Source: a virus
Lineage: Duplodnaviria; Caudoviricetes
IMG/VR virus record: IMGVR_UViG_3300035510_000286
Coordinates: 72,133 to 136,132 of that record
Length of the DNA: 64,000 nt
Direction: 5' to 3' (one strand)
Positions 22,589 through 62,695 of the stretch are shown piece after piece. The position numbers and the translations under genes were made by a program. Under the pieces are notes generated by a model. It saw nothing but the letters and a program-made list of their open reading frames with translations, was not told the DNA's origin and searched no databases. Every line of letters starts with the position of its first letter. The stretch's first letter is position 1.

Positions 22589-22813
22589 ATTAAGTATTTT
22601 ATTTTAGGAATCCTCTTTGCCACTATAGGAACTTCTTTACTAGATTTATTAGTAACTATTATTACTTATTTTACTGAATTAATTAAGGCTAAGTTTAGCA
22701 TTAAAATTGGAGAACTTAATGCGGAAATAGCTAAGTTGAATGGTGAAGAAGAACCTACTAGAGTAATTGGTTTTACTCTAGGTGAAGAAGGAGATGAAGA
22801 AGAAGATGATTAA
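22589..22813 (+). CDS. small membrane protein with probable ATT start
   Basis: RBS AGGAGG 7 nt before ATT; 74-aa frame with TM helix and acidic VIGF..EEEDD tail overlapping the PhoH ATG. Confidence 0.5.
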   Translation: MKYFILGILFATIGTSLLDLLVTIITYFTELIKAKFSIKIGELNAEIAKLNGEEEPTRVIGFTLGEEGDEEEDD

Positions 22814-24032
22814 CTTTTATGATACATCTAGTTTGTTACTAAAAACTAGCTTTGACGATGAAAACAAGTTTTTAGTTTCTTCTATTACAATTAAAGAATT
22901 AGAAAATATAAAGACTTCTACTCATAAAAATGAAGAAATTAAGTATTCAGCAAGAAATTTATTAAAATTTTTATATGAAAATACTGATAAGTATGACGTA
23001 ATTTTACATAAAAGTGCTTATGAATTTCCGATTGTAGAAGCGGATTTCGAGTTGAATAATGATTCTAAAATCCTATCAGATGTTATTTATGCCAACAACA
23101 ATTTGCATATAGACGATATAGACTTCGTTACAAATGATTTTTCTCTCGCTTTATTAGCAAATCAATTCTTGGGTGATGGCTGCATTAAAGCTATAGCTCC
23201 CGCCGAAGAGTATACAGGATATATTGAAGTAAGCGTGAGTGATAGCTCAGTAGCAGATATATATCAAGATAAAAACCCTTATGGTTTGTTATGTGGAGAA
23301 TACTTGATAGTACGAGAAGAAGATAAAGTAGCAGATGTCTTAGTATGGCAAGGCGACTCGTACAGACACTTAAGTTACAACTCTTTTACTTCTGATTGGT
23401 TTGGTGAAGTTATTCCTTATAAAAATGATATTTATCAAAAACTATTATTTGATAGCTTGTGTAACAATACCATGACTATTATTAGAGGTAAAGCTGGAAC
23501 AGGAAAGTCTTATACTGCAATGGCTTATCTCATGTATGCGCTAGAAAAAGGCATTATAGATAAAATAGTTATTCTATGTAACCCCGTTGCTACTAAAGAC
23601 TCGGCCAGACTTGGCTTTTATCCTGGATCTAAAGAATCTAAACTTCTCGATTCATAGATTGGTAATTTCTTGATTGGTAAATTCGGCGGCTCTGAAGCAG
23701 TAGAGAGATTAATAGAAGAGGGCACTTTGATATTGATTCCTGCTTCTGATTGCAGAGGACTAGATATAGGTAGTAGGGCTGGCGTATATATCACAGAAGC
23801 GCAAAATACTACTATAGATTTAATGCAACTTATGCTTCAGCGGATTGGAGAGAATTGTATCTGTATCGTTGAAGGTGATGATAAAGCACAAGTTGATTTA
23901 AAGGTATATGAAAATAATAATAATGGTCTGCGGCGGGCCTCGGAAGTATTCCGCGGCGAACCTTACTATGGAGAGGTAACTCTTCAAAATTGTTATAGGT
24001 CTAAAATAGCTGCTAGAGCAGAATTAATGTAA
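22806..24032 (+). CDS. phoH: PIN-PhoH (PhoH2-like) protein (TAG at 23655 read as Gln)
   Basis: PIN YDTS..VTND; Walker A GKAGTGKS; LGFYPGS; RG..TEAQN..GD; the two fragments are in frame. Confidence 0.88.
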
Positions 24033-24084
24033 GAAAAGAAGCACTTTATGTGCTTCTTTTTTTCTTTTGAAAGGAAGTGAAATA

Positions 24085-24915
24085 ATGTTAAATATTACTA
24101 AGAAAACTAGCACAACAAATACTACATCTCTGCCTAATCGTTCAATTAAATATATTGTAATTCATTATACAGCCGGTGTAACTTCTAAAGCTGGTACTGC
24201 GGCAAGTACTGCGTCTTATTTTAGTAATGCTAGTGTAAAAGCCTCAGCAGATTTTATTGTGGATGATGGAACTATAGTCTAGTTTAATCCTGATATAGCT
24301 AATAGATATGCTTGGCATTGTGGTGGTTCTAAATACGCTACTAAAGGTGGTTCACTCTACGGAGTAGCTACTTTAAAAAATACTATTGGTATTGAGATTT
24401 GTTCTACCAATAAAACTGGCAAGATGACATATGCTAATGATTCTAATTATTATTTTAAGGATACTGCGCTTAATAATGCTGTAGATCTAGTGAAATATTT
24501 AATGGATAAGTATAATATTGATGTTAATCATGTTATTCGTCATTATGATGTAAATGGTAAATAGTGTCCTGGCATCGTTGGTTGGAACGCAGATACAGGT
24601 GATGAAAGTCAGTGGCTAGCTTTCAAAAAGAGATTGACTACCACTACTACAACTAGTTCTAATACCACTACTAATCAGACGAAATCGCAAAAGGAGGAAG
24701 AAATCGTGACTCAAGAAGATTTTAACAAGATGATGGATGTATACCTAAAATCTTTAGCCGAAAAGGATCCTAGTTCTTGGAGTAGTGCAGACCGCACATG
24801 GGCAGAGAGTAATAATCTTATTACTGGCTCAGATGGCAAAATGCAGTATAAGAAATTCTTAACTCGTGAAGAGTTTGCAGCGGTGCTACATAGATATTAT
24901 GAGAAATTCAAGTAA
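24085..24915 (+). CDS. endolysin, N-acetylmuramoyl-L-alanine amidase (Amidase_2) with SLH-like C-terminus (two TAG read as Gln)
   Basis: YIVIHYTA, SADFIVD, AWHCG, IGIEIC, IRHYDVNGK(Q)CPG; C-terminal LTREEFAAVLHRY. Confidence 0.88.
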
Positions 24916-25204
24916 TAAAGAATTTTCTAAAACACTACTAGTCCAAGAATCTATTTTAATTTGGATTATGACTATATCTTTCATTGCTCTTGCTTTTATC
25001 TGTATATTTAAAGGTTATACAGGTTCTTTACCTTGGCTATCTGCAATGTCAAGCTTACCTTGGGGTGCTTACGCAGTAAGTCAAGCTTTTTATTATTCTA
25101 AAGCAAAAGCAGAGAATACTGCAGGTGGATTGAAATTTGAGACTATAATGAAAGATATGACTTCTAGCGCTGAAGATTTAGATGATGTTATTCCTGACAT
25201 CTGA
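24899..25204 (+). CDS. two-TM membrane protein, holin candidate
   Basis: Two TM segments and FYYSKAKAEN; adjacent to the endolysin. Confidence 0.6.
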   Translation: MRNSSNKEFSKTLLVQESILIWIMTISFIALAFICIFKGYTGSLPWLSAMSSLPWGAYAVSQAFYYSKAKAENTAGGLKFETIMKDMTSSAEDLDDVIPDI

Positions 25205-25388
25205 TTATTAAGGGCGGAACTTAGTTCCGCCCTTTTTATTTTTATTTGAAATTCTAAAAAATTTGTTGTATAATTATTAAAGAAAAGTGATAGAGAGGAC
25301 TTCCAATCATTCATTTCTCTTTCACTTAACAAAAATATTATAATTTAGTAAATTTAAAATTTCAATCTAAGGAGGTTTATACCATTAG

Positions 25389-27564
25389 ATGAAAGATAAT
25401 AAAAATCTATATGATGAAAATTCTATTCAAAGCTTAGATCCTAGGGAGTTTACACGCTTGAGGCCTGGTGTCTACGTAGGTAGCACCGAGTATTCTACAC
25501 AGCTTTTAATCGAGATTATTAGCAATGCTGTTGATGAATTTCGAGCTGGTAATGGGTCTAAAATTGAAGTAAAAGTAAATGATGATAATGTTATTGAAGT
25601 TAGAGACTACGCACAAGGTTTCTTAATTAACAGTGTGCGGGAAGATGGTAAAACTATCCTTGAAGCTAGTTTTAGTGTACTTAATACCAGTGGTAAGTAT
25701 AGTGAAGATGGCGTATATGAAGGTACCGCTTTAGGTCTTAATGGTATTGGTTCTAAGCTTCCTACCTTTTTAAGTCATTGGCTTGAAGTTACTTCTTATC
25801 GCGATGGTAAGATGGAAAAAATCAGATTTGATGAAGGTATCTTTACATCGAGAGAAGTGGCAGATACAGAGCAGCCTTCCGGCACTTATGTAAAATGGCT
25901 TCCTAGCGAAGAATTCTTTGACCATCCCGAAGTTAATGAAAAGGTAATTAAAGACTTACTCGAGGTTTTAGTTTGTCTTTGTCCCGGACTTACTATTGAA
26001 TATACTAGTCATGGAGAAATTACAAAATATTATTCTAAGGAAGGTTTAAAGAATTTAGTAGACAAAGCGGTTAAAGAAAAGGAAATTCTAAAGAATCGTT
26101 TTACTATCAATCATACAGAAGGCAAGTATAGTATTGACTTAGTAATGACGTATACTGATTCCTATTCTTCTACTATTGTTCCATATGTGAATACTGGTCT
26201 TACTGATTCTGGTCCCCATATTTCTCAGATTAAAACTATTCTAACTAGAGAAATGAATAAGTTCTTTAGAGATAAAGGATGGCTTAAAGATAAGGATAGT
26301 AATCTTTCCGGCGATGACTGTCAAGAAGGTATGTATTTAGCTTTTAATATTTCTGCACCTGGTGTTTCTTATGACGCACAAACTAAGTCTAGAATTGTAA
26401 AGCTAGATATGAAACCTTTTAACGGGATCATTACTGAATCTCTCCAGTACTGGTTTGCAGCAAATGAAAAAGAAATTAAAAACATTGCGGACAAGGCTTT
26501 AAACGCCCGAAAAGCGAGAGAAGCTGCACGCAAAGCTCGAGATGCCGCACGAGATCCTAAGAAGAAAGAAACCGGCCTTAAGGCTAAGATGCAACTCAGT
26601 AATAAGTTCATTGATTGTGTGAACAAAAAACCTGAAGAACGCACGCTGCTTATAGTCGAGGGGTTAAGCGCCGGGTCAGCTGCAGTTGAAGCGCGTAATG
26701 CCAAGACTGATTGCATCTATATGCTGAGAGGTAAGATTATTAGTCCTCTAAAAGCTAGTTTGGATAAAATTCTAGCTAATCAAGAGATGTCTGATATTAT
26801 CAGAGTTATTGGTGCAGGATTCGGTGATGCTTTTGACGTTTCCAAGATGAATTTTAATAAGATTGTTATCACCAGTGACCAAGATAGCGATGGAAGTGCG
26901 ATTGAACTTTTGCTTATTACATTCTTTTGTACTTATATGCGGCCGCTCGTGGAAGCTGGCAGACTATATCGAGCTGTAACTCCTCTTTATATCATTAGAC
27001 AAAAAGGCGAAGAGTATTATTGTTATTCTGACGCAGAATTGGAGGATTGGAAGAGTCATAATTCTGGAAGTTATGAGTTACTACGAGCAAAAGGGTAAGA
27101 GATAGTCTGGCCCTTACTTACTTTTCCCAATGACCATGGGGGTTTGTTTAATAAACAAGCTAACGAGGGAGTCTGACCAAGTAAAGTTGAAGATAATCTC
27201 GTGCCAAGTCTCATAATGAGAAAGGTGTATCGACTATTCCCTTTGTCGGGAAGTACTGGTGCTATTGGTACGCACTCTAGTTTTAGGAAACGAAGCTAGT
27301 TAAATGAGGAAACGGTAAGCTTTAAGATTTATCTTAAAGAAGAAATAGTCAGTACCATTGGAAACAATGGATTAATATGTAGGCGAATTAAACCCAATCG
27401 ATTTGCAGAAGGTGTGCTTTGAGAATGAAAGATACAAACAACTAACAATTTCTGATTTAGAAGAAACTATTAAACTGCTAGAAGTTTTAGAAGGTCCTGC
27501 GATCGAACCTCGTAGACAATATATCTATGATAATGCTACAGAACTTGGTTTTAGCTTTGATTAA
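25389..27564 (+). CDS. gyrB: type II topoisomerase subunit B (GyrB/ParE-like); exons 25389-27096 and 27380-27564
   Basis: RPGVYVG, EIISNAVDE, GLNGIG, VEGLSA, DQDSDG; spliced junction restores RAKG-LGELN. Confidence 0.92.
27097..27379 (+). mobile_element. group I intron without ORF (in gyrB)
   Basis: Exon ends in U, intron ends in G; P1 aagggt/gccctt; core tcgacta...tagtc. Confidence 0.88.
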
Positions 27565-27576: not shown

Positions 27577-29940
27577 ATGGCGAATATTACAGAAGTAGAT
27601 ATTTTAGATGAATCGAAAGAATGTTTTTTAACCTATAGTTCTGAGGTACTTACAGATCGTGCGGTGCCAGCCGCAGAAGACGGTCTCCTTTCCGCACAGC
27701 GTAAAATCTTGTGGACAATGGAAGATTATTTGAAAATGGATTCTAAAAGCAAGACTAAAAAGTGTAATGCTCTAGTCGGATCTACCCTAGCGACCTCGTA
27801 TTTTCACGGCGATCAAGCTTGTTATGGCGTGCTTTGTAAGATGTCCCAAGAATTTCTTATGAGGTATCCGCTTATTACAGGTCAAGGCTCTCTTGGTACT
27901 CAAGAATCTAATGATATGAAAGCTAGCTCGAGATATACAGAAGCTAAACCTTCTATTTACGCAGACTTGATGATGGGTGATTATAAGAAGAATGTAGTAC
28001 CAACAAAAGAAACTTACAATGGCGAGTTTATGGAGCCTATTGTTTTGCCTTCTCTTTTCCCTAATGCAATTTGTAATGGTAGACAAGCTATTGGCGTCGC
28101 ATTATCTCATTCTAGTGTGCCTCATAATCTAACTGAAGCTTGTAACGCTATTACCGCTTATATTGAGGATAAAATCTCGAATGTAGATGAATTAATGCAG
28201 TATATGAAGGGACCTGACTTCCCGCTTGGCGGTACTGTCATCAATAGTTCTGTGATTCGTGAAGCTTTTAGAACTGGTAAGTCTAAAGTTTCTCTAAAAG
28301 TTCGAGGAAATTATGAAGTAAATAATGATGAAATTATTTTTACTACAATTCCTTATAGAACTTATCGTGATAAAATTAAAGAACAAATCAATAAAAACGT
28401 CGAGGAATTAGAAAAGTATTTTGATGATTTCAGTGATGAATCAAATGTAGGTAAGAATAGATTAGTTTTTAAGATAAAAAGCGGAGTTAATGCGGCAAAG
28501 GCTTTGAATGTGCTTTTTGCTAAGACCGATTTACAGACTACTGTATCTTATAACATGAATTACATTGTTAATGGTACACCTAAGCTTTGTTCTATGTTGG
28601 ATCTAGTAGATGCTTATGTTAAACACCAAACAAATGTCCTACTCGCTGCTACTAAGTTTGATAAGGAAAAAGCCGAAGCAAGAGCGCATATCTTAAGAGG
28701 TCTACTTGTAGCATTAGATAAAATTAATGAAGTTATTGAACTTATTAAAAAAGCAGAAGGAAAGAAAGACGCTAATGCTAAGTTAGTAGATTTTCTCGGC
28801 ATTGATGAAATTCAAGCTAATGCCATTCTTGATATGAAACTTGCTAAGCTAACTCGTATTGATAAGCAAGAGCTAGTAGATGAATTAAAGCAGAAGGAAG
28901 AGATAATTGAGGAATGTGTGCGGATTTGCGAGGATGAAAGCTACAGAAATCAAGTCCTTATTCAGAAAGTAACGAGCCTTAAAGAGAAATATGGCGACGA
29001 GCGCCGCACAAAGCTGGCAGACATCCAAGAAGAAAAGCCTGAAAAAGCTAAACCTGAAATTGTGCCAGAGGATTGTGTTGTAAATATCTCTAAGTCTGGA
29101 TATATTAAGCGTATTCCTAGTAAGTCTTATAAGACTTCTCGCAGAAATACTGTAGGAGCTAAGAATGAAGATGTCATGGTATATACGGCTAAGACAAATA
29201 CGGTAGATACGCTTCTTATCTTTTCTTCTGCTGGCAAAATGTATAGACTTCCTGTCGTTGATATTCCTGAAGCTACTAATGCGACCAAGGGTCTATTACT
29301 CACGAGTTTAGTCGACTTCGAAGCTGGCGAATCCGCAATGGCTTATACTGTGTTAAATGACAATAGTACACCTAATTATGTATTCTTCGGAACTGCGGAT
29401 GGTACAGTTAAGAAAGCTAAGTTTGAAGAGTTTACTTCTACTAAGCACTCTAAAGGTGTTAAGGCTCTAAAACTGCGAGAGGGTAATTTCCTCACCTCTG
29501 TTGATTTTATGTGTGATGAAGATATTCTTCTTATTTCTAAGAGAGGTATGATTATTCGATTCGCTACAGAAGATATGCCACTTTCTTCGAGAACCGCGAT
29601 GGGCGTTAAGGGTATTAAGCTTAATGATGGCGATGAACTGGTTGCTTGCGTATCCATTAGAAAGCCTTATCTTGCGGTTGTAACGGCCGATGGCCACGGA
29701 AAGCTTGTTGATATGGCGGAGTTTAATACACAAGGCAGAGGTGGTAAGGGAGTAAAATGTACTAATGGAGTTGACATTGGCGGAGTAGCTCAAGTTGACT
29801 TAACTAGCGATATCCTCATTACCGGCGACCGCAGTTCTGTACGGGTTTCCGCCCAAGAGTTCCCGCAGTATAGCAAAATGATGCTTGGAAATTTGGTTAT
29901 TAAGAACAATGATACAGTGACTTCTATTACCGAAATTTAA
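27577..29940 (+). CDS. gyrA: type II topoisomerase subunit A (GyrA/ParC-like)
   Basis: DGL..QRKIL, YFHGD, ASSRYTE catalytic Tyr, C-terminal pinwheel repeats (GRGGKGV). Confidence 0.92.
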   Translation: MANITEVDILDESKECFLTYSSEVLTDRAVPAAEDGLLSAQRKILWTMEDYLKMDSKSKTKKCNALVGSTLATSYFHGDQACYGVLCKMSQEFLMRYPLITGQGSLGTQESNDMKASSRYTEAKPSIYADLMMGDYKKNVVPTKETYNGEFMEPIVLPSLFPNAICNGRQAIGVALSHSSVPHNLTEACNAITAYIEDKISNVDELMQYMKGPDFPLGGTVINSSVIREAFRTGKSKVSLKVRGNYEVNNDEIIFTTIPYRTYRDKIKEQINKNVEELEKYFDDFSDESNVGKNRLVFKIKSGVNAAKALNVLFAKTDLQTTVSYNMNYIVNGTPKLCSMLDLVDAYVKHQTNVLLAATKFDKEKAEARAHILRGLLVALDKINEVIELIKKAEGKKDANAKLVDFLGIDEIQANAILDMKLAKLTRIDKQELVDELKQKEEIIEECVRICEDESYRNQVLIQKVTSLKEKYGDERRTKLADIQEEKPEKAKPEIVPEDCVVNISKSGYIKRIPSKSYKTSRRNTVGAKNEDVMVYTAKTNTVDTLLIFSSAGKMYRLPVVDIPEATNATKGLLLTSLVDFEAGESAMAYTVLNDNSTPNYVFFGTADGTVKKAKFEEFTSTKHSKGVKALKLREGNFLTSVDFMCDEDILLISKRGMIIRFATEDMPLSSRTAMGVKGIKLNDGDELVACVSIRKPYLAVVTADGHGKLVDMAEFNTQGRGGKGVKCTNGVDIGGVAQVDLTSDILITGDRSSVRVSAQEFPQYSKMMLGNLVIKNNDTVTSITEI

Positions 29941-29949: not shown

Positions 29950-31047
29950 ATGTTCGATAAAGAAAAGATTGCAGAATTATATCCAGGCGCAGAAGATCTT
30001 ATGCTCGAGGCGCAGCTCATTTGGAAGCTGCCTTCGGGCAAAGAAGATATGTTTGAAAAAGTCTGTGAATCTGGAGAATACTTTCTTACAGAAAAGATTG
30101 ACGGTGCTTTATATCAATTTGTAAAAGTTGAAAATGGAGCATATCTATTCGGTAGAACTATTAGCAAAACTACTGGGTTACTTACTGAAAAACTAGATAA
30201 TGTACCGCATATCAGAGAAGCGCTTTCTGTGTTACCTTCTTCTACTGTTCTGATTGGTGAAATCTACTATCCGGGCGGAACATCCAAGAATGTAACTAGT
30301 ATTATGGGTTGTTTGCCGAAGAAAGCAATAGAAAGACAGAAGGATAATCCTATTCATTATTATGTCCATGATATTATTTTTTGTAATGGAGAAGATTTAA
30401 CTGGAATTGGGGCAGAAGATAGATATAACATTTTAGCTTCTTTGTGGAAAGAATATAACCTTGATTCTTATGATTTCTTGCGGTTGGCCGAGAAAAAGGA
30501 TGAAGATTTTCAAGCTATTCTCGCTAATATTCTAGCTTCTGGTGGAGAAGGTATTGTTCTTAAAAAGAGGGATGCGGTATATACTGCTGGAAGGCGCCCA
30601 GCTTGGAGTAGTATTAAAGTGAAAACTGTAGATACTATTGATTTAGTCTGTGTGGGGCTATGTAAACCCACTAAAGAATATACCGGCAAAGAATTAGAAA
30701 CATGGCCTTATTGGGCTAGGGGTGAAGAGTTAATTAACGAAAATAAATATGGAGAAGAAGGATGGGAACCGATTACTAAGCCATATTATTTAGGCGTAAT
30801 TACCTCTATGGAGATTGGCGCATATCATAATGGTAGTCTAGTTAAAATTGGTACCGTATCTTCTGGTTTTACAGATGATGATCGCGCCCAAATGACTTTT
30901 TATCCTGAGAGTTTTATCAATCATGTATTTAACTTTTCTTGTATGAGTATTGATAAGAAGGAACATACTCTGCGGCATCCGGTGTATGTAGGTCCTAGAC
31001 CAGATAAGAATCCGCAAGAGTGTATCCTGGAAGAAGTGTTTAGTTGA
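29950..31047 (+). CDS. ATP-dependent DNA ligase
   Basis: EKIDG, IGEIY, EGIVLK, IKVK, LRHP. Confidence 0.88.
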   Translation: MFDKEKIAELYPGAEDLMLEAQLIWKLPSGKEDMFEKVCESGEYFLTEKIDGALYQFVKVENGAYLFGRTISKTTGLLTEKLDNVPHIREALSVLPSSTVLIGEIYYPGGTSKNVTSIMGCLPKKAIERQKDNPIHYYVHDIIFCNGEDLTGIGAEDRYNILASLWKEYNLDSYDFLRLAEKKDEDFQAILANILASGGEGIVLKKRDAVYTAGRRPAWSSIKVKTVDTIDLVCVGLCKPTKEYTGKELETWPYWARGEELINENKYGEEGWEPITKPYYLGVITSMEIGAYHNGSLVKIGTVSSGFTDDDRAQMTFYPESFINHVFNFSCMSIDKKEHTLRHPVYVGPRPDKNPQECILEEVFS

Positions 31048-31776: not shown

Positions 31777-32757
31777 ATGGATATTTTAGCTTGTATTCTT
31801 GCCTTTGCATTTTGTTTTTTAGCAGTTTATGCCTACAGCTTAAAGTAGGATGTTAAAAAAACTGTTAAATTCAATGCAAAGTAGGCAGAAGAAAATAAAC
31901 AATTAGAATAGACAGCAAATGACTTAAAAAATACAATAGAAAATTTAACTTTAGAAACTTCAAAAGTAAAAAGTGAATTAAAAGATAAGCAAGATTCTTT
32001 ACTATATATTTCTGATTAGATTATACATTCTGAGAAGCAACAGAAGGATTTAGTAAATGACCAAGCTGAACGCCTAAGAATAGCTGGACAAGCAGAGAAG
32101 GAAAAACTACAAAGAGAATATGAAGATTACCGAGAAGAATTAAGGTCAAAACTAGAGAACTTCAAAGATGAAATCTCGTTAAAACAAACTTCTATTTAGA
32201 GTGCTATAAAAGAAGAGGAATCTAAGTTAGCAGAATTGCGGGCAAAGTAGGATACGTATCTCTAGGAGCAACAGAGAAAAGAAGAAATGCTTCGTAAGAA
32301 AGATTATTATCGTTTATGTATCTCTGATGCGGAAATTGCGGATGTGCAAGCTTTGAGGAACTTTCAATCTACCTTCTCGCGCAAAGAAGCTATAGATAAA
32401 ATTTTGTGGGATATTTATTATAAACCCGCTTTTGACGTTCTTTCTTCACATTTGTTTGAAGGAACCGGTAAGGTTTGTGGAATTTATAAAATTACTTGCT
32501 TAGATATTGATAAAGCTTATATAGGTCAAAGCGTGGATATACGAGAACGTTGGCGGCAACATATCAAGTCTGCTTTATCTCATGAATCTACTTAGAATAA
32601 ACTATATAAGGGCATGAAGGAATATGGCGTTCATAATTTTACTTTTGAAATATTAGAAGAAGTACCTAGAACGAAGTTGAATGAACGAGAAGTTTATTGG
32701 ATTGATTTCTATAGAACTCAAGATTTTGGATTCAATGGAAATAAAGGTGGTAGTTAA
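31777..32757 (+). CDS. N-terminal TM + coiled coil + C-terminal GIY-YIG protein (8 TAG read as Gln)
   Basis: Single frame of 326 codons; CGIYKIT..YIGQSVDIRERW..H..NEREVYWI. Confidence 0.8.
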
Positions 32758-33512
32758 TGGAAATTGAAAATATTTATGCAGATGGTTTTGAAGCAGCGAT
32801 TCGAGGTATGAGGAATCCTATGAACTCCTGGGACCGCAGTGATTCAGCTTATATTGTAGATTTTTATATGAAATCGTTTAATTCTAAAGTAAAAAGAATT
32901 TATGATTTATATGAAAATCCTGATTTTACTTTTGAAGAGTTTAAGAGAAATGGCTCTCTTGAGAGTGAGGTTTATGATTTAGGTTATTTCATTGGGCCTA
33001 ATGACATGGATTTGGCGTGCCGATTGGTAAAATCTGGAAGTGAGCACCGTAAGTTCCTTAGACAGATTAACGTATCTATGGATATTACAGCACCGATTTA
33101 TTTCTGGAAGGAAATGGACACCTATAAGCTCGGTACGACGTCGAATAGTACCTCGACAATGCATAAACTTGCTTCCACTCCTATTACTCTTGATTGTTTT
33201 GAAACAGATGATTATGAACCTAGACTTGATTTAATTGATGATTCAAATCTCGGTATGAGAGTTGAATGTCTCATTAGTGATTTAGAGCAACTACGCCAGA
33301 GATTTAATGAAACAAAAGACAAAAGATACTGGAAGGAACTTGTGCGCTGGTTGCCTGAAAGTTGGTTGCAGACGAGAACTTGGTCAGCAAATTACGAGGT
33401 TCTAAGAAATATTTGCCATCAGCGCAAGGGCCATAAACTAAGTGAATGGAAGTATTTTTATGATACTATTGCTACAGAAGTTCCTTATGCAAAGCAATTT
33501 ATAATTGATTAA
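32757..33512 (+). CDS. conserved phage protein, possibly ThyX-like fold
   Basis: AIRGMRNPMNSW, HRKFLRQI, APIYFWKEMDTY, STMH. Confidence 0.55.
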   Translation: MEIENIYADGFEAAIRGMRNPMNSWDRSDSAYIVDFYMKSFNSKVKRIYDLYENPDFTFEEFKRNGSLESEVYDLGYFIGPNDMDLACRLVKSGSEHRKFLRQINVSMDITAPIYFWKEMDTYKLGTTSNSTSTMHKLASTPITLDCFETDDYEPRLDLIDDSNLGMRVECLISDLEQLRQRFNETKDKRYWKELVRWLPESWLQTRTWSANYEVLRNICHQRKGHKLSEWKYFYDTIATEVPYAKQFIID

Positions 33513-43984: not shown

Positions 43985-44169
43985 TATTAAGGGACTAGGA
44001 AACTAGTCCCTTTTATTTTTTATCTAGGGTAACAGGTATATCGGGGCGCATACAGTAGTTAAATCCATAAACCTCAGATTAAAAATGGCTTAGGGAAATT
44101 TTTACCCAAAATTGTAATAAATTACTTTATATGATATAATATTTATATGAAATAAAGGAGATTTTAATT

Positions 44170-45781: not shown

Positions 45782-45835
45782 TTTGAACTTCATAGAAAAA
45801 TATGATATTATATCTATAGAAAGGATGTGAAAGGT

Positions 45836-51253: not shown

Positions 51254-54200
51254 ATGTATATTGTGAAACGTAGCGGTGAAACCGTTGAGTTTGATAAAAA
51301 TAAGATTATCAATGCTATTAACAAAGCATTTGTAGAAGTTGATGGCACTTTATATGAAGATGAAACAGCACAAGAAATCGCTAATGATATTGAGAAAGAA
51401 ATCAACAAGTCTCCTGCTAATGTAACTGTTGAAATGATTCAAGACTGGGTCGAAGATGAATTAATGCAGTCTGAACGCAGAGACGTAGCTAGAGCTTATA
51501 TTAGATTTAGATATAAGAAGGAAGTAGCTAGGGATGTAAAAGCGGATTTCTTTGATGCTATTGGCGAAAAGCTTTCTGCTTCTAATATCCAAAACCAAAA
51601 TGCGAACGTAGATGAAGCTTCTTTCGGAGGCCGTATCGGTGAAGCTTCTAGCGTTATGACTAAACAATATGCTTTAGATTATATTGTATCTAATATGGCA
51701 AAGCAGAATCATTTGAACAATGAAATTTATATTCATGATTTAGATAGCTACGCAGTCGGGATGCACAACTGCTGTGCACGAGAGACAAAATTCATCACTA
51801 AAGATTTCGGAGTTCATTCTTTTTCTGACCATGAAGATGGTGATAAAATAGTAGTGTTAAGCCATGATGGTAGCTTTAATAACGCTACAGTTAAAAAATT
51901 TGGAGTTCAAAAGTTGAACAAGGTTACTTTTTCTCTTGCTGGACAAAGATTTGTTACAGAGCGTTTTACAGCAAACCATAGATGGATATTAGAAAATGGG
52001 GCAGAAACAACTCATTTAAAAATAGGAGATAAACTTTATAAGGCGCCGATTAGTATTAGAAGGTTTGACTGGGATATGGCGACAGAAAAAGAACAATATT
52101 ATTGGTGTTTAGGATTTGTCCTTGGTGATGGTACAGAGGCTTGTAGATGGTCGCACGGAAAGAAGAATGAAGATATTAAATTCGTTCGTATGAGACTTTG
52201 TGGCGAAAAAATTAAATACGAACAAAGGTTTATAGGGTTGAAACATTCTACGAAGGAAATGCCTAACGGCGACCTATATCTAACATTCAGTAGCACGATT
52301 GGATTTAGGAAAATCTTCCCCGACCTTAATCTTATGACAAGAAACGAAAAACTAGCTTTATTTGATGGATTATATTGTGCAGATGGACAGCATACAGGGA
52401 GCAGTAAAACGATTACTACTACAAATGAACAAATAGCTAGCTTTATAGAAGATGAAGCCCCTGCGCTGGGGTATTTTATTCTTGGAATTAAAGACAAATC
52501 TGGAGAAAAGACAAATTATACCACAAGAGGTTTCACTAAACAATATACCTTTATTGGAGATACAAATAAATACTATTGGACGGTTGTAAATATTGAAGAA
52601 GATAAGGAAGAAGAGGTATGGTGTTTGCAAGTTGAAAATACTCATAGCTTCGTTCTCCCAAATGGCATTACTACTGGAAACTGCTTAAGTGTACCTTTTG
52701 ATGATTTACTGGCTAATGGCTTTGATACTAGACAGACTGATGTGCGGCCGGCCAATAGCGTTAATACAGCTTTTCAGCTTGTCGCGGTGATTTTCCAGCT
52801 TCAGAGCTTACAAGAATTTGGTGGAGTTAGCGCTACACATCTTGATTGGACGATGGTACCATACGTCCGTAAAAGTTTTTATAAACATTATATAGATGGA
52901 TTAAAATACATTGATAGCTTTGAGGCCGAACTCAAATTGGCTATTTCTAGTGATGAAGCTAAAGATATTAGTATCGAAGATACTAAGATTTATAAGCATA
53001 AAATGTCTTATAATTATGCTATGGATATGACAGTTAAAGAAGTTCATCAGGCAGTAGAAGGAATGTTCCATAACCTTAATACTTTGCAGAGTAGAAGCGG
53101 GAATCAACTCCCCTTTACTTCTATCAATTTTGGTACTTGTACTCTTCCTGAAGGCCGTATGATTATTAAATCTCTATTAGAAACCTCTATTGAAGGAGTA
53201 GGTAAACTACATAAAACACCTATCTTCCCTTGTTCTATCTTTCAGTGTATGAAAGGTGTCAATAGAGAACCTGGAGATCCTAATTATGATTTGTTCCAAC
53301 TGGCATTGAAGTCTACTTCTCAAAGGCTTTATCCTAATTATGCAAATGTCGATTGGAGCGGCAATGAAGGGTATGACCGAGATGACCCGCGGACTTATTT
53401 CTCGACCATGGGTAAGCGTAAACTACAGCTCATGTAAAATCTTTTGAACCTCGCTCGAGGGTGTCTACTTATAAAGTAGGCTAACGGTTAGGACCTATGA
53501 ATGTTAAATAGGCTGAGACCGTGGGAAGTTTAATATATTTGATTTAAATTTGGCTCTTTTATATAATATAGCTATATTAAAGTAAAGGAGTAAATAAATA
53601 TGTTTATCTATAAAATTACTAATAAATTAAATGGCAAAGTATATATTGGTTAGACAATAGGCAGCATAGAGGCTAGATGGCATCGTCATCAATAGGATGC
53701 TTTAAATGGTAGATTAGATACTCATTTTGCCAGAGCCATTAGAAAGTATGGGCCTGAAAATTTTGATGTTGAAGAATGGGATAATAAAAATACCTAGGAA
53801 GAATTGACATTAGCAGAGCAATATTGGATTAAGTATTTTAATAGTGTAAAAGAAGGATATAATGAGACTGATGCAACATCAAAATGTGGTGGCAATACTT
53901 ATAAGAGTAAGACCGAAGAAGAACTAAGGCAAATCGGGGAAAAAATTAGAGAAACGAAATTAGGGGGTAAAAATCCTAATTCAACTGCCGTTAAATGCAA
54001 AAATATAAAGACGGAAGAAGAGTATTATTTTAATTCTCAAGCCGAAATGCAAAAATTCTTTAATGAGACTAATCATCTTTTTATATCTAGGCGTTGTCTT
54101 GGAGAAATCCAAAAACCTTATAAAGACGAATGGCTAATTGCCTATGCTGATAAAGAATACGGAGAAGTTCAAAGGCAAGACCGTGAAAGAAAAGTGTCTA

Positions 54201-55519
54201 AAAAACCAAAAAATATACGAGTAATAAAACTTTCTACTCAAGAAAGTAAAGATTTTTCTTCTTACGCCGAAGCAGAAAGATACTTTAATATAAAACCTCG
54301 CAGTTTTAGCTCAAAAGCGTATAAAAGAGGAAATGAATTTACTTATAAAGATGAATATAAAATTATTAAAATATATTAAAAACCTGTATCGACTATCCCT
54401 GATGAATGTATGGGAGTAGGGCTGGAGATAAGCACCAGCGATGTTTTAGGAAACGAAGCATCTGAAAACCGAAGCGGAAGACTACTTAGTCACAAGTAGA
54501 AGATATAGTCAGTACTAATGGTAACATTAGATAAAATGTGTAGAACAGCTAACGGCTACGACATCAATGGGTTCGGCCAGCTAAAAGATGGCCGTGGTAA
54601 TATTTGCCCCGTAACTATTATTATGCCCACTTTAGCTATGGAAGCAAAAGAAGAATATGATGGAACCACTGAGGACGCTCCAGATAAGATAAGCTTATTT
54701 ATGAATCTTCTTGATGAAAAAATCCATGAAGCTAAAGATATGCTCATTGAGCGATTTGAATATATTTGCTCTCAATCTCCAGCCAGCGCCAAGTTTATGT
54801 ATAGAAATCATGTTATGGCAGGGTATAATCCAGAAGAAGGCATTAGAAGCGCGTTAAAACATGGGACTCTGGCTATTGGCCAAATTGGATTAGCTGAAAC
54901 ACTTCAAATTTTAATCGGTTGTGACCAAACAACAGATAAAGGAATGGAATTAGCCAAACGGATTGAACAATTATTTAAAGATAGGTGCGCGGAATTTAAG
55001 AAAAATTATAAACTTAATTTTGGTGTATATTTTACTCCGGCAGAAAATTTAGCTTATACTTCTATGAAAAAGTTCCAGGAAAAATATGGTAAAATTCCTA
55101 ATGTAAGTGAAAATGATTATTTCACAAATTCTATTCATACGCCGGTATGGAAACAAGTTTCTGTATTTGAAAAAATTGATATTGAATCTCAGCTTACTGG
55201 ATATTCTTCGGCTGGATGTATTACTTATGTAGAATTAGATTCTAGTGCAAAGCATAACCCAGAAGCTTTAGAGATTATTGTAAATTATGCAATGGATCAC
55301 GATATACCTTATTTCGCGATCAATGTCCCCAATGATACTTGCTTAGATTGCGGATACACCGATGAAATGGATGATTCTTGTCCTATGTGCGGCGGCCAGA
55401 ATATTCAGCGCCTACGTAGAGTTACTGGATATTTAACAGGTGATTATAAGAGTGCTTTTAACCTCGGCAAGCAGCAGGAAACTGAAATGAGAACTAAACA
55501 CGTAGGAGTGAGAGAATGA
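51254..55519 (+). CDS. nrdD: anaerobic ribonucleoside-triphosphate reductase; exons 51254-53413 and 54539-55519; contains an intein
   Basis: ATP cone, YIHDLD, spliced STMG-CRT, CxxC..CxxC, RRVTGYL glycyl-radical loop. Confidence 0.93.
51770..52681 (+). mobile_element. 304-aa intein with LAGLIDADG-type endonuclease domain
   Basis: MHN|CCARET...TANHRW...HSFVLPNGITTGN|CLSVPF; LGFVLGDG and FDGLYCADG motifs. Confidence 0.88.
53414..54538 (+). mobile_element. group I intron (in nrdD) with GIY-YIG homing endonuclease gene
   Basis: P1 catgggt/gctcatg; gtatcgacta...agatatagtc; terminal G. Confidence 0.88.
53600..54379 (+). CDS. intron-encoded GIY-YIG homing endonuclease (3 TAG read as Gln)
   Basis: MFIYKITNKLNGKVYIG(Q)T, in frame with 53804..54379. 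Confidence 0.85.
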
Positions 55520-56832: not shown

Positions 56833-57368
56833 TGGTTTTTCAGAAGGTTTCAAGATTTACTGAGGTAGATATGCCGCGCCGGTCAACTGCGGAATCCGCG
56901 GGCTATGATTTCTTCGCAGCAGAGGATACTATTATTCCTTCTTTTGTTTCTCAATTTGATACTTTAAGAAAATATACGCATGACCAAGGAAAGCCTTATG
57001 AGCCTCTTACTCTTGATGAAATCGCAGAATTTACTAAAAATTCTGACACTCGTTTTACTCTTGTTTCTACTGGAGTGAAATGTCAAATGCCTAGTAATGT
57101 GCATCTCAGGCTGTTTTCCCGCAGTTCAGTGCCTTTGAAGAATTGGCTAGTGCTTGCAAACGGAGTCGGGATCGTGGATGCAGACTACTTCGGTAATAAC
57201 GATAATGAGGGCGAAGTGTTCTTTCAATTCATAAACCTCGGTCCTAATCCTGTTCTCATCAAGAAAGGCGATAAAATCGGACAAGGTATCTTTGAAAAAT
57301 ATCTAGTTACAGAAACAGATGAAGCAACAGAAAAGAGAACTGGAGGATTCGGCTCTAGTGGGAAGTAA
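56832..57368 (+). CDS. dut: trimeric dUTPase
   Basis: SAGYD, RSS, GIVDADY, IGQG, RTGGFGSSG. Confidence 0.92.
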   Translation: MVFQKVSRFTEVDMPRRSTAESAGYDFFAAEDTIIPSFVSQFDTLRKYTHDQGKPYEPLTLDEIAEFTKNSDTRFTLVSTGVKCQMPSNVHLRLFSRSSVPLKNWLVLANGVGIVDADYFGNNDNEGEVFFQFINLGPNPVLIKKGDKIGQGIFEKYLVTETDEATEKRTGGFGSSGK

Positions 57369-57852
57369 TTTATTATTAGCTTTAGATCAAAGCACTAAGA
57401 TAACTGGATACGCAGTATTTAATGGTTAGGAACTAATCGCCCATGGTCACGTAACTTTTAGTGGAAGCGATTATATAAATAGAATTGTTTAGTTGCGGCA
57501 GTGGCTTAATGGCATTATCGACTCTGTAGATGGAAGCATCTAGGTAGCTTTAGAAGATATTTAGCTTTAGGATGCTAAAGGGACTGGAGTTACTGGGCTT
57601 CCTACTTATAAAAAACTTGCGCACGTACAAGGGGCTTTAATGACTTTACTAGAAGAAAAAGGAATTTCTTATTAGTTAGTTTTAGCTTCCTCATGGAAAA
57701 GTACGTGTGGAGTTAAGGGTAAAAGACGAGAAGAATAGAAGAAAAATGCTTAGTTGTATGTTAAAAATATATATGGCTTTGACCCTACTTCTGATGAAGC
57801 TGATGCGATTTGTTTAGGACTTCATGTATTAAAGCACGATTGGTCAGAATAA
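57358..57852 (+). CDS. RuvC-like Holliday junction resolvase (8 TAG read as Gln; absent from the ORF track)
   Basis: LALDQSTKITGYA, ALEDI, WKS..G, DEADAICLG. Confidence 0.85.
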
Positions 57853-57912: not shown

Positions 57913-58371
57913 ATGTTAGAATTTATAGTCAAGTATTGGCTTTAGTTTCTTTTTGGCATAGTTGCGGCGGGCGCTACAACAGCCGCTAGATTTTTTTATA
58001 AAATGTACAAAGAAGAAAAAGCTAGATAGACTGCCGACGGAAGGGCGGCCATTTCTAAGGAAATAACAGAAGCTATTAGTACAGCAGTTCACGAGGTACG
58101 TTTTAACTCTAATAGTGAAGATGAAAAACTTTAGGGAGAAATTAATAGCATTAAGGCATAGTTAAGTATACTAAGACACGCTATTTTAGTTTTATACAAA
58201 AAGCCTTTTAAAGAAGCGTGCGAAAACGCCTTGAAAAAAGACCATGAAATTACTTTAATGGAATATTAGGAACTAGCACACGAGCATGACGTTTACAAGT
58301 CCTTGGATGGAAATTCTGACGGAGATACTTTGTACCATCTAGTCGAGCAAAAATATCAGAACAGTCTATAA
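57913..58371 (+). CDS. TM + coiled-coil membrane protein, holin-like family (several TAG read as Gln)
   Basis: MLEFIVKYWLQFLFG...YKSLDGN. Confidence 0.65.
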
Positions 58372-58407: not shown

Positions 58408-58590
58408 TTACATCGTGGTATCTTTCTCTTCTAATTCTTTTACCTTGTGATGATAATAACATACCTCTTCTAAATCTTTTATCATATCAATAACTTCGCC
58501 TAATTCCTCGGCGGATACTTGCTCTGGATGCCCCATTTGTTCCATAATTTGGTCAATAAGACATTCTTTAATCATTTTAATTCTGTGCAT
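58408..58590 (-). CDS. hypothetical protein of the five-gene cassette
   Basis: ELGEVIDMIKDL..CYY. Confidence 0.7.
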   Translation of the reverse strand: MHRIKMIKECLIDQIMEQMGHPEQVSAEELGEVIDMIKDLEEVCYYHHKVKELEEKDTTM

Positions 58591-58591
58591 A

Positions 58592-59014
58592 TCATGCCAC
58601 TCTTTCTACTATTAAATTAGCATTTTGAATTGAAATCGTCTATGCGGTTGTATTGCGGATAGTTACCTAAGAGCAACAACCTTTAGGGACATCAATGAAA
58701 ATACTTGCGGAAATGTTGTTATATAGATTCACTGCACCAGGAGTAGAAATCATAGTTGACGAAGCTACAGGTTCACCGTCTATAGCTATCGCCAACGAAA
58801 TAGGGCCAGCAGTACCAGTGGTAGGAACCGCTACATTCCCACCAAAAAGCACTCTATATCTAGCTCTACTTTGGCCATTAGTTAAACCACGCAAATTAAC
58901 TAGGCCACTTCCACTTCTGTGCATTATTGAACAATTACCTTCAATCGCAGTATTAAGGAATAATACATCTTGGTTAGCTGCCACGCTCTGAGCTGCTACA
59001 CTTGTCAGTTCCAT
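58592..59014 (-). CDS. beta-sandwich (BclA C-terminal-like) protein of the cassette (two TAG read as Gln)
   Basis: HRSGSGLVNLRG, YRVLFGGNV, IDGE; ends NANLIVERVA under code 15. Confidence 0.75.
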
Positions 59015-59029
59015 TGTATTACCTCCTTA

Positions 59030-59770
59030 TTAAGCGCAACCACAACTGCATCCGTTAGAGCCGAAGGGCACTGCATTACCGAGAGGAAAAGCAGAATAGG
59101 GAGAAGCAGTTAAGTATGCGGGCTGAGGTGTGGGCCGCAGCTAATCAACGAGATATGCGTTCTGCGAGCACTGAGATAACTGGAAACGTGCGCTCTGCAG
59201 TTCTGAATCCTTCTCGGCCATGCGGTCCCGCAGATTCTGCATATTAGTTTCCTGGATAAGCGCGCGAGTCCGTTCACCTTCACCATGAATCGCGTTTGTA
59301 ATATCACAGGTATTACGATATGCTTCTGCTTTAACGCTATCGATACTACGCTGTGTGGTGCAGCAGCAATCCTGCATTGCATAGCGAGTATCAGCGATAT
59401 TAGCATTAACTCCATCAAAGCCCTAAGCAACAGAACTAAATCCAGTACACAAATCACGCTGAACATTACCAAAGCTATTAAGTAAAGTTGTATTCTGAGA
59501 ATAGAAACCATCGCATAAACCTTGCTGGATACCACGGACGCCATTCTCAACCTGCTGGAAATTCATATCTTGGGCTAACTCACCACGAGTTAAAGCGCCT
59601 TGACTAGAGGCATTGTTATTACCCCAGCCACTGTTGCCATTGCCCCAGCCCATAAAGATGAACAGGAATAAGATGATAATTAACCAAGCACCATCGCCAT
59701 TTCCCCAGCTACCATTGTTTCTACCAGAAGCAGCAGCAATATCAGACAGACTATAATCGTTATTAAACAT
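59030..59770 (-). CDS. Gly/Asn-rich protein with QDCCC motif, often annotated spore-coat-associated (two TAG read as Gln)
   Basis: YSLSDIAAA, WLIIILFLFIFMGWG, MQDCCCTTQ, LRPTPQPAY..GCSCGCA in a single frame. Confidence 0.8.
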
Positions 59771-59797
59771 TTTTAAATCTCCTTTAATATTTTAATA

Positions 59798-60028
59798 TTA
59801 AAGGCCAAATTGCTGTTTAAAAGCAGCAAACTCCTAATCAAAATTTCCGCCTTTTGATGCTACCATATTTCGAGCAATTTGTTCTATAGAAGCAGAATCT
59901 CCCTACTTGGCCAGAGAAAGTAGATTCTACATAATAGGATTCCCTTGGGAATATTGCTCTAACATACTAAAAACCATCTATTGCGGATTACCATTCCTTA
60001 GAATATTTGCAATTTGGAAAGGATTCAT
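59798..60028 (-). CDS. Gln/Asn-rich small protein of the cassette (TAG read as Gln)
   Basis: MNPFQIANILRNGNPQQMV...; RBS ggagg. Confidence 0.7.
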
Positions 60029-60041
60029 TACGTTACCTCCT

Positions 60042-60446
60042 TTAGAATTTTATTTGCGGGGACTCCTGTTTAGGAGTTCCCTTTTTCTCGTTTAGAGAAG
60101 CTTTTATCTCAGCAAGAGCAGAATCAAATTCATCCTTAGTAACATATTGTGCCGTAGCTTCGATGGGCATTGCCTTTAACTCATAGATATTTAGCGTAGA
60201 AGTTCCATCTAAATTAATTTGTTTTGTATATATCTTCTTATTTGCTAAATCAGGGAAAAAGAAAATTGAACCATCAAAATCTATTGAAGTTGCTCTCACT
60301 TCATCAATAGAAGAAACAGGGCGTCCTTTAATTCCAACTTGCGGGATCTAGGTCTATTCTCCGTAAGGCTATGGCCGATAATACTGCGGTTGCGGTTGCT
60401 ATTGTGCGCCATATACCTAGCTTGAATAGTATGGATAAGTTGCCAA
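60042..60446 (-). CDS. protein with Gln/Pro/Tyr-rich N-terminus, first gene of the cassette (5 TAG read as Gln)
   Basis: TTG start; GRPVSSIDEVRA..FDGS..FPD..KIYTKQ. Confidence 0.75.
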
Positions 60447-60611
60447 AAGTTATTCACTCCTTTTACATTAGTTTCTTTGGCCTTCACTAATATATAAAAA
60501 TTTGGGAAATTCACTTAATCAAATTTGTCAGAATTTTTGTAAAAAAGATTCCCAGTTCTCGGGCAAAAAAAATAAGGGGCAAGAACTATTACGTTCTTGC
60601 CCCTAAAGGTA

Positions 60612-60815
60612 TTACTTAAATAAGTCGGCTAAAGTCTTATCCTTAGCACGAATATATTTTCTTTGAATCGCGTTCCACTCGTCCATCTCTTTAGAGTAAT
60701 TAGTCCAGCCTTGCTCGACTGCATACATCTTAGAAGCGACACTAACATCAACGCTGCGCTCTTCTGCGACTGCCTTGATAGCCATACGATTTTCATAGAA
60801 TCTATTATCCATCAT
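60612..60815 (-). CDS. hypothetical protein
   Basis: ORF track; RBS and downstream terminator. Confidence 0.7.
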   Translation of the reverse strand: MMDNRFYENRMAIKAVAEERSVDVSVASKMYAVEQGWTNYSKEMDEWNAIQRKYIRAKDKTLADLFK

Positions 60816-60887
60816 ACAACTTCCTTTCCTTAAATTGAAAGTAACCTTTCAAATATATTAAAAAATTAGTTATATGACTTAAATAGT

Positions 60888-61511
60888 TTAGTCCTCGTAG
60901 CTTAATTCTATCTCGAGAATTTCTGCTATAGACTGTGTAGAATAAATCTTAGTTTTAAGCTGCTGCATCTTATGATAGTAAGGATATACAAAACTAGAGA
61001 TTGCTGCGCTTAAACGAGATAATTCTTCATAAGACCAGGTTGTATTCTCTTCGTGGATAGCGTGCCACTCAAGGATAGGCGTTTCCGCGCCCGCATCAAC
61101 CATAGCCTTATACTGTGATAAATTCAAGCTGATTTCAGATTGGTCATTAGCTGTAACCCCATAGCTTTTACCATCCGAGAAAACTAGTGCCTATGAATCT
61201 AGGAATTCCGCGAATTTCTCTCTATTTTCCTTTTGTTTCTCAGCTTGAATATCTCCAATGCTTTTACGTAAAATACATTCTCCATTGTCATACGCATAAA
61301 CATTAGGAATAAAATCTCCAATAGGCTCGTTTATTTCGTAGACAGAAACCGAGTCCAAAGAATAAAAAGTATCACAATCTGAACCAATAACGCCTGTTGC
61401 TTCTTCTTTCGCACAACTAATTAAAAGTGCGGGTTCAGTCTGCCATTTAACCCATCTAGGTTCAGAAATCATATCTACGATTAAATTATTTTTATTTACA
61501 TATATAAACAT
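60888..61511 (-). CDS. tail-fibre-associated protein, DUF4376-like (TAG at 61191-61193 read as Gln)
   Basis: Two ORF-track fragments in frame; LEWHA...FVYPY..QQ..K..I. Confidence 0.65.
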
Positions 61512-62695
61512 AAGTCTACCCCTTTGAATAAAGATTTGAAATAATTATCCATTCGCTAGACTAAATAAAAAGTATTACCTTTACTTATATGCGCTCGCCA
61601 ACCTAAGTAGGACTATACAATATTCTCAGTAGTAGTTTCACCATTTAACCAAAGTTTCTACTAACGTCGCATCTTTCTGCGCTATTTGGCTATTTTCTCT
61701 TTGAAAGGAAGTTGTATAAGACCATTGTCTTTCGTTAGCCAAAAATTCCACTTTAAATACTTAAAAGGCTGCTGGCGTTTTCCGGGTTTAATCTACATTA
61801 TAGTAGTTTTCTTACGATTCAATTTAAGACCCTAGCTAACGAGCTTTTGCTCGATCTTAAGCACGCATTCCCGCAGATATTCTTTATCATTCCCAAAGAA
61901 ATAAATATCATCCATATATCTGCCGTAGTATTTAAGATGTAGCTGCTCCTTAGCATAATGGTCTACTTCATTAAGTGCTAATAATGCTAAAAGCTAAGAA
62001 GCCTAACTTCCTAGTCCTAGACTTGTAGGTTTATATTCGTAATACGTCTTACCAGGTTTAAAGTATTGCACTTTTACAGGTCTATAGCCATATTGTCCTT
62101 TAACTATATAATACTATTTATCTGGCTAAGGCGTATTATCTGTTGTGGGTGAATAACAAAAAGTGTCGATAATATATTCTACAAGCTCGCTTATCTGCGG
62201 CTATTGAACATATTTCCGCACTACCGATTTAAGATATTCATGGTCTATTGAATCGAAATACTTTTTAATATCTAGCCTAACCGCATAAAAATTCTCACCA
62301 AGACCAAAGTCCTAGTGAGCTTTCTATAAATGTATTCTAACTCGCTTTAAGGCAAAGTCAATTCCTTTGTCTTTCAATGTAGCGCAATTATCATATATCA
62401 ATTTAGGAGTAAGCTATGGTAAAAGAAATGTTTCACAAAGAGCATTTTGAAGCATCCTATCATAAATATAACAGGCTCTTATATCTCGCTTCTTACCTCT
62501 TTCAACTATTGAAAAACAATTAAATACCATCTACTAGTATTCATTATTCTTCAATTCTTCTTCTAAACGTAAGACGTTATTTAGTCTATTCTCTTCAAAA
62601 TTGATAGTACTACCTTTCCATCTTACGTTTCTGCAAACTTTGTATGAAGCATCATATAGAGCTTCACGACTACAACTAATCTAGGAGTCCTACAC
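61496..62695 (-). CDS. DGR reverse transcriptase, 399 aa (about 19 TAG read as Gln; absent from the ORF track)
   Basis: RBS aaggagg + GTG; ERGKKRDI, DRMLQ, LDIKKYFDSIDH, GLGS(Q)AS(Q)LLA, YGRYMDD. Confidence 0.92.

Follow-up and report, generated by a model that had tools for sequence, protein, structure and literature searches.

Gut phages with stop-codon recoding carry the reassigned codon in structural and lysis genes, and their replication genes are standard or variably recoded, according to Borges et al. (10.1101/2021.08.26.457843; Nat Microbiol 2022). The study also describes the preferential recoding of a group I intron endonuclease in an early gene; its authors suggest that this endonuclease is withheld until the late phase (10.1101/2021.08.26.457843). 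In code-15 crAss-like phages the reassignment of TAG to glutamine (Gln) is confined to late-gene blocks and the replication genes contain many introns and inteins (PMC7886860, PMC9523058); for these phages Gln decoding was confirmed by metaproteomics (Yutin et al. 2021, PMC7886860; Peters et al. 2022, PMC9523058). The phage phAss-1, or 'Phassvirus', has a genome of ~136 kb, a tRNA-Sup(CTA), and TAG read as Gln (Babkin et al. 2023, PMC10607447), and the recoding state of PhoH, holin, dUTPase, and NrdG varies between species of the Phassvirus group (PMC10607447). In phage T4, the genes e (lysozyme), 49 (endonuclease VII), I-TevI, and soc are carried on early or middle polycistronic RNAs and are translated late (PMC3014915, PMC2988022). 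The block consists of hairpins that sequester the ribosome-binding sites and is relieved by late promoters (PMC3014915, PMC2988022). The subject of this study is the plus-strand replication block of a virus genome available as a single 136,132-bp contig (IMG/VR record IMGVR_UViG_3300035510_000286). The window that was analyzed is the last 64 kb of this contig (64,000 nucleotides), and positions refer to the window unless the genome is named. TAG codons in this block are concentrated in a minority of genes, most of which encode nucleases or lysis proteins, and are absent from the core replisome.

The genome is that of a gut phage with an SPbeta-like DnaE replisome that reads TAG as Gln, presumably through its own tRNA(CUA); the closest named phages are SPbeta-like, with a DnaE identity of only ~38%. 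It is similar to phAss-1 in its ~136-kb length, its suppressor tRNA, and its use of TAG for Gln. However, phAss-1 has a GC content of 44.5%, three suppressor tRNAs, and a 3,149-aa tape measure protein (PMC10607447), whereas the present genome has ~36% GC, one suppressor tRNA, and different late genes. The study of Babkin et al. does not analyze, statistically or by function, which genes of the replication block carry the recoding (PMC10607447). The crAss-like phages differ from the present genome in virus order, replisome, and host phylum. Their recoded region is one contiguous block, whereas here recoded genes are scattered inside a standard-code block.

TAG codons in the replication block

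The plus-strand replication block contains 42 in-frame TAGs among 374 Gln-type codons, and these are found in 11 of 42 genes where 22.9 are expected (permutation p ≤ 5e-5). The heterogeneity between genes is significant (G = 121.4, df 40, p = 4e-10), and the per-gene counts thus bear out an earlier reading of the sequence alone (the sequence-only reading), which described TAG use as strongly non-random and gene-specific. The core exons of GyrB, GyrA, ligase, DnaB, primase, DnaE, and NrdD feature 4,932 codons, 155 Gln codons, and no TAG, which has a probability of 1e-8 at the rate of the block. No TAG was counted in the 8-22 kb block either, so that both regions are open in the standard code, as had been stated. 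The fraction TAG/(TAG + Gln) falls from 0.405 for the late block to 0.112 for the replication block and to about 0 for the early genes. Base composition was considered as the cause of the pattern and ruled out by the GC values, which are 0.325 for TAG-bearing genes, 0.353 for TAG-free genes, and 0.359 for the late block that is richest in TAG, and by the off-frame TAG density (19.1 versus 16.0 per kb); AT content, which was named at the outset as a possible refuting cause, does not account for the TAG frequency. The TAG-bearing genes have 15 CAG and 62 CAA codons and the TAG-free genes have 104 and 151; this shortage of CAG in the TAG-bearing genes suggests that TAG has taken its place. Nuclease or lysis genes make up 8 of the 11 TAG-bearing genes and 3 of the 29 TAG-free genes (Fisher p = 3e-4). 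Under the standard code of the host, 8 of 9 TAG-bearing open reading frames (ORFs) would stop after 9-91 codons, before or within the catalytic domain.

Gene identities were assigned from Pfam and PHROG profile matches, and the genes described here lie on the plus strand unless stated. The resolvase gene (57319-57852) features 8 TAGs among 13 Gln-type codons and overlaps the end of the TAG-free dUTPase gene. Its product is predicted to be a RuvC-like Holliday-junction resolvase that matches phrog_827 (3e-22) and the RuvC-like phrog_159 (3e-13) and has no Pfam match. The product of 41387-43147 is, judged by its profile matches (DHH 5e-15, RecJ_OB 2e-6, DHHA1 weak), a RecJ-like DHH exonuclease, and its DxD and DHH motifs are intact in the alignment. 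The six TAGs of RecJ are located at codons 10, 24, 122, 238, 375, and 570, all within sequence that is kept in relatives. Eight TAGs are found in the gene of a protein that features an N-terminal transmembrane (TM) segment, a long coiled coil, and a C-terminal GIY-YIG nuclease domain (31777-32757), here called the membrane GIY-YIG protein. Seven of the eight lie ahead of the nuclease domain, and the stop codon of this gene overlaps the start of the next gene, which is TAG-free. The GIY-YIG endonucleases of the DnaB intron (38399-39127), the DnaE intron (47445-48086), and the NrdD intron (53600-54379) have 2, 4, and 3 TAGs, respectively. The Amidase_2 endolysin (24067-24915) has two TAGs, codons 72 and 166, both within the catalytic domain. 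The PIN-PhoH protein (22782-24032) has one internal TAG at codon 292, within the PhoH domain, and a second TAG is located upstream of the likely start. The last plus-strand gene (57913-58371) encodes a 152-aa protein with an N-terminal hydrophobic stretch and has 5 TAGs. On the minus strand, the late cassette at 58408-63550 is TAG-bearing and includes the reverse transcriptase (RT) of a diversity-generating retroelement (DGR) (61496-62695, minus strand) with 19 TAGs; the remaining minus-strand genes at 58.4-63.6 kb have 0-5 TAGs each, and two small ORFs have 0. A recount returned the TAG numbers that had been given for RecJ, the resolvase, the membrane GIY-YIG protein, and the endolysin, and the PIN-PhoH and RT genes are interrupted as described. 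A holin-like gene had also been called interrupted; however, the two-TM ORF by the amidase (24866-25204, plus strand), which overlaps the amidase gene, is TAG-free, and only the 57913-58371 protein fits the description.

The TAG-free genes of the plus strand are GyrB (25389-27098), GyrA (27577-29940), the ATP-dependent ligase (29950-31047), DnaB (exon 1, 37234-38268; exon 2, 39360-39800), the DNA primase (40241-41350), an SF1 helicase, DnaE (exon 1, 45827-47209; exon 2, 48147-50645), Gmk, NrdD (exon 1 from 51254; exon 2 at about 54518-55519), NrdG, the dUTPase, and the genes of the 8-22 kb block. NrdD exon 1 includes an in-frame intein of 281 codons without TAG. This mobile element has to be translated together with the early protein that hosts it, and its lack of TAG argues for the timing of translation, and against mobile origin, as the factor behind TAG use. 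Between RecJ and the helicase, within the primase-RecJ unit, lies the gene (43220-43984, plus strand) of a Phage_lysozyme2-domain protein with a signal-like N-terminus, which has no TAG; a cell-wall hydrolase that is apparently produced in the standard-code phase is unexpected. A Pfam search of the remaining plus-strand ORFs found no further nuclease among the TAG-free genes, most of which have no family.

The tRNA with a CUA anticodon, an amber suppressor, is located at 8075-8149 (plus strand; ARAGORN; Rfam tRNA, 38.1 bits). It is the sole suppressor tRNA of the genome, closes the tRNA array, and is followed at its 3' side by a terminator-like hairpin. Seven ortholog alignments with relatives revealed that the residues aligned to TAG columns are Gln in 31%, followed by Lys and Glu with 11% each. 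The stop codons of the 154 called genes are TAA in 112 and TGA in 42, and no more than one gene is a candidate for termination at TAG. Pfam and PHROG domains continue across the TAGs in RecJ, the amidase, PhoH, GIY-YIG, the RT, the resolvase, and the portal. These features indicate a dual-coded phage in which TAG is predicted to encode Gln (code 15). The sole gene that may end at TAG is a free-standing GIY-YIG ORF (1924-2643), the only TAGs of which are codons 227 and 234 of 239, and an 89-nt tRNA called Gln(TTG) (1862-1950) overlaps the start of this ORF at 1924.

TAG use in related phages

A DnaE-based scan of IMG/VR yielded 79 loci with 41-99% identity that represent 36 lineages; a search for relatives with RecJ alone found one near-identical contig only. 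Judged by their portal genes, some relatives are recoded and others keep the standard code, among them the closest lineage (60% DnaE identity). The lineage comparisons cover 18 TAG-using lineages, the present one and 17 others, which are not fully independent of each other. Among the other TAG-using lineages, TAG is found in the resolvase in 11 of 14, in intron-type endonucleases in 14 of 17 occurrences, in RecJ in 7 of 12, in Gmk in 7 of 14, in NrdG in 6 of 13, and in the DnaE halves in 3-4 of 17, mostly as single codons. Lineage-level sign tests determined that nucleases exceed other accessory genes in TAG use (14:2, p = 0.004), that other accessory genes exceed the core replisome (12:1, p = 0.003), and that nucleases exceed the core replisome (14:1), and the pattern of the present genome thus recurs in related phages. 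A DnaE tree of 30 lineages requires at least 10 changes in the TAG state of the block and a minimum of 7 in that of the resolvase. The TAG columns in the alignments are mostly lineage-specific. The sequence-only reading had proposed that recoding also times potentially self-damaging DNA-cutting enzymes, which is supported in part. These enzymes are the preferred carriers here and in relatives, however, they are not the exclusive ones: relatives also have TAG in Gmk, NrdG, NrdD, and the SF1 helicase, and occasionally in DnaB or DnaE.

Three complete or near-complete recoded genomes (G001-G003), with 30-57% protein identity, have the same map as the present genome. GyrA, GyrB, ligase, primase, and DnaE have no TAG in any of the three, and the portal has 8 TAGs in G001, 7 in G002, and 1 in G003. 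In the order G001, G002, and G003, the TAG counts are 8, 11, and 16 for the membrane GIY-YIG protein, 3, 10, and 7 for the resolvase, 4, 5, and 2 for PIN-PhoH, and 14, 1, and 0 for RecJ. The TAG fraction of the resolvase in the four genomes is 0.62, 0.67, 0.78, and 0.43, at or above that of the virion genes (combined p = 0.003). The membrane GIY-YIG protein is kept and heavily TAG-recoded in all four genomes (orthologs at G001 15752-16771, G002 5998-6969, and G003 11290-12360); its gene adjoins the ligase gene in the present genome, G001, and G002 and lies ~2.4 kb away in G003. G001 and G003 are clearly TAG-recoded, with 79-111 TAGs in the largest protein, and G003 features terminal repeats and is rated complete. 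Two further TAG-rich genes were observed in G002 (32189-33160; L091:12189-13160) and G003 (16679-17470; L096:16679-17470). Both have weak DUF2726 matches of 22 bits, below the Pfam cut-off, and may be additional recoded nuclease-like genes.

Introns and genome organization

The three GIY-YIG ORFs within DnaB, DnaE, and NrdD are identified as intron-encoded homing endonucleases with predicted splicing. The Pfam profile coordinates are contiguous across the DnaB, DnaE, and NrdD halves that flank them, and DnaE and DnaB are single ORFs in G001-G003. Rfam covariance models gave no match to these three endonuclease-bearing introns. The Intron_gpI model matched an intron in an AAA_24 gene with 53.3 bits and a site after GyrB with 32.5 bits, which is below the gathering score. 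The three endonuclease-bearing introns and the AAA_24 intron share a 3' AGATATAGTC-type motif. The AAA_24 gene (34529-35482) is split by this group I intron (Rfam match 35450-35782), which holds a two-motif LAGLIDADG endonuclease whose coding sequence is split among three frames. The homologous parts of this endonuclease contain no in-frame TAG, and it is probably a decaying homing endonuclease. The weak group I intron match (27087-27371) begins at the end of the GyrB ORF, and its 5' hairpin resembles a hairpin at 38289-38306 after DnaB exon 1. A 53-aa ORF at 27403-27564 was considered as the second, C-terminal exon of GyrB and could not be confirmed.

The contig ends overlap by 264 bp (window 63737-64000 versus genome 1-264), with 250 identical positions and 14 mismatches. 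All 14 mismatches lie within the DGR variable repeat at template-adenine positions, and both end versions of the repeat deviate from the template repeat solely at template adenines. Since the ends overlap and the mismatches are confined to the variable repeat, the genome of ~136 kb is circular or complete; the IMG/VR label of the record, linear and 79% complete, is at odds with the overlapping ends. One assembly has thus captured two DGR-diversified alleles. When TAG is read as a sense codon, the genome map falls into three regions. The first, at genome 0-46 kb on the minus strand, is the virion module, which encodes, among others, a portal, tail proteins, and a 2,379-aa protein with 66 TAGs. 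The plus strand carries the second, at genome 48-130.5 kb, in which small early genes are followed by the tRNA array, an RNA-repair-like block, and then the replication genes. The third is a short cassette on the minus strand at the end of the contig. The minus-strand cassette had been described as interrupted, and its TAGs are present, however, it is not a separate cassette. Because the contig closes on itself, the cassette joins the virion module across the junction and forms the upstream end of the late module. Searches of the contig for an RF-1/RF-2 domain, a class Ic synthetase, a serine recombinase, and a tyrosine integrase gave no match.

Proposed timing, rival explanations, and known systems

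The favored explanation is one of timing, and it is regarded as probable with modest confidence: the TAG-free genes would encode proteins needed before a code switch, and the TAG-bearing genes would be post-switch genes whose TAGs delay translation inside early operons. Products that are needed while the cell still terminates at TAG, namely those of the early genes, the RNA-repair block, and the core replisome, would be kept TAG-free by purifying selection. Genes that act once the suppressor works would accumulate TAG through CAG-to-TAG transitions, up to the levels of virion genes. This class would include the virion proteins, the DGR RT, the lysis amidase, PIN-PhoH, the resolvase, RecJ, the membrane GIY-YIG protein, and the intron homing endonucleases. 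Release factor 1 (RF1) of the host would abort translation at TAG, usually ahead of the catalytic domain, until the suppressor tRNA accumulates. The code, the gene-by-gene distribution, and its recurrence in relatives form the basis of this account, from which the timing and the competition with RF1 are inferred; as an interpretation of the TAG pattern, timing is plausible. The TAGs are proposed as a translational gate because several TAG-rich genes share predicted operons with TAG-free genes. The gaps are 36 nt between primase and RecJ and 72 nt between RecJ and the lysozyme-like gene, and the only strong plus-strand terminators are located at 25210-25234, 36629, and 43989-44012. Because the gaps are short or the genes overlap and no strong terminators lie between them, co-transcription of RecJ, the membrane GIY-YIG protein, and the resolvase with TAG-free genes is predicted to be likely, and a translational rather than a transcriptional distinction is plausible.

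Several results weigh against this timing account. The suppressor tRNA is placed in the plus-strand middle region, upstream of the replication block, and a sharp switch between an early and a late code is therefore not evident from the map. No RF or glutaminyl-tRNA synthetase (GlnRS)-type gene was found in the contig, and ARAGORN detected no tRNA(CUA) in two recoded relatives (G001, L103-L110; G003, L096-L102). Some relatives have TAGs in DnaB or DnaE, so that the TAG-free boundary is not fixed. The promoter (sigma-70-like) and terminator calls are consensus scans at background frequency. The first TAG is not nearer the 5' end than random among Gln codons in the TAG-bearing genes of the replication block (p = 0.12), and its position in the late genes is likewise unbiased (p = 0.17). 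This counts against timing and also against the nuclease-specific explanation discussed next, and three further observations speak against the latter. The PIN domain lies upstream of the sole internal TAG of PIN-PhoH. The lysozyme-like protein, which has a predicted signal peptide and would be secreted, is TAG-free here and in most relatives. The holin-like ORF is TAG-free here, and its G001 ortholog has 4 TAGs.

One rival explanation, which builds on the sequence-only reading, is a safety lock that is specific to nucleases, in which TAGs are positively selected because premature cutting would harm replicating phage DNA. This is a possible but doubtful explanation. The 14 of 16 lineages in which nucleases exceed other accessory genes, the virion-level or higher TAG use of the RuvC-like resolvase in four genomes, the heavy recoding of the membrane GIY-YIG protein in all four, and the two additional genes with weak DUF2726 matches are consistent with it. 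However, RecJ has 0-1 TAG in the recoded G003 and G002, Gmk and NrdG reach similar TAG fractions in relatives, and the compared lineages are not fully independent. The stronger form of this idea is equally tentative. In it, the TAGs are an interlock that has been positively selected and has evolved repeatedly, and it acts on the resolvase, the membrane GIY-YIG protein, RecJ, and the intron endonucleases, DNA-cutting enzymes that would share transcripts with early replisome genes. If the interlock were true, the code switch, and not transcription, would set the onset of DNA cutting and resolving.

Late transcription alone, with the TAG-rich genes as separate late units and TAG as a passive mark without regulatory effect, is an improbable explanation. 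The PIN-PhoH, amidase, and holin-like unit is bounded by a 235-nt gap and a strong terminator/promoter pair, and the resolvase and 57913 genes are the last plus-strand genes and adjoin the late module. However, no terminator is predicted between the genes of RecJ, the membrane GIY-YIG protein, and the resolvase and the TAG-free genes that they adjoin or overlap, and the intron endonucleases lie inside early-gene transcripts by construction. Inspection by eye found no convincing late-promoter motif 5' of the TAG-rich genes. A TATAGAAAG motif occurs 12 times versus 2.2 expected, with plus-strand positions at 155, 620, 9414, 10613, 13370, 17613, 45815, 51230, and 56190, most of them just 3' of a TATAAT-like box. 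It is found ahead of TAG-free units only, including DnaE exon 1 and NrdD exon 1, which is in line with separate transcription, and it may be a middle-promoter or leader element. Decay or recent import from recoded phages, which would make TAG a matter of origin and not function, is very improbable: homing endonucleases are mobile and low in GC (0.25-0.31) and the LAGLIDADG endonuclease of the AAA_24 intron is visibly frameshifted, however, the TAG-rich genes are free of TAA and TGA stops and of frameshifts, their TAGs lie at Gln positions, their catalytic motifs are intact, RecJ, RuvC, PIN-PhoH, and the membrane GIY-YIG protein are syntenic across lineages at 30-57% identity, and the mobile NrdD intein is TAG-free.

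If the translational gate proposed by the timing account is real, recoding controls single enzymes inside early operons, beyond lysis and virion assembly, and provides operon-internal timing without promoters or RNA structures. With at least 36 DnaE lineages, the clade lends itself to comparisons of which genes become recoded first. Annotation with one code per genome or block misses or truncates these nucleases, the lysis genes, and the DGR RT.

The T4 system and the one proposed here have in common that a lysis enzyme, a junction resolvase, and an intron GIY-YIG endonuclease form the controlled set. However, the proposed block here is termination at an in-frame TAG that is relieved by a suppressor tRNA, unlike the hairpins of T4. 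The TAG gate may thus be viewed as a code-based counterpart of the T4 hairpin control, by analogy of logic and not by homology. With the phages in the accessible portions of Borges et al., the genome shares a dual-code organization, a phage suppressor tRNA, recoded structural and lysis genes, replication genes that are standard or recoded to a variable degree, and a recoded intron endonuclease. The recoded intron endonuclease described there is from TGA-recoded Agate phages, whereas the codon here is TAG, and the present clade differs in being a large group of probable Firmicutes phages with a DnaE replisome, among which the TAG state has switched many times. The resolvase, RecJ, the membrane GIY-YIG protein, and PIN-PhoH of the replication block are not mentioned in those portions, and literature searches found no statement on a recoded resolvase, RecJ, or membrane GIY-YIG protein. 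The finding is a well-supported extension of a known principle and not a new kind of system, because Borges et al. already give the principle and a recoded intron endonuclease with the same timing argument.

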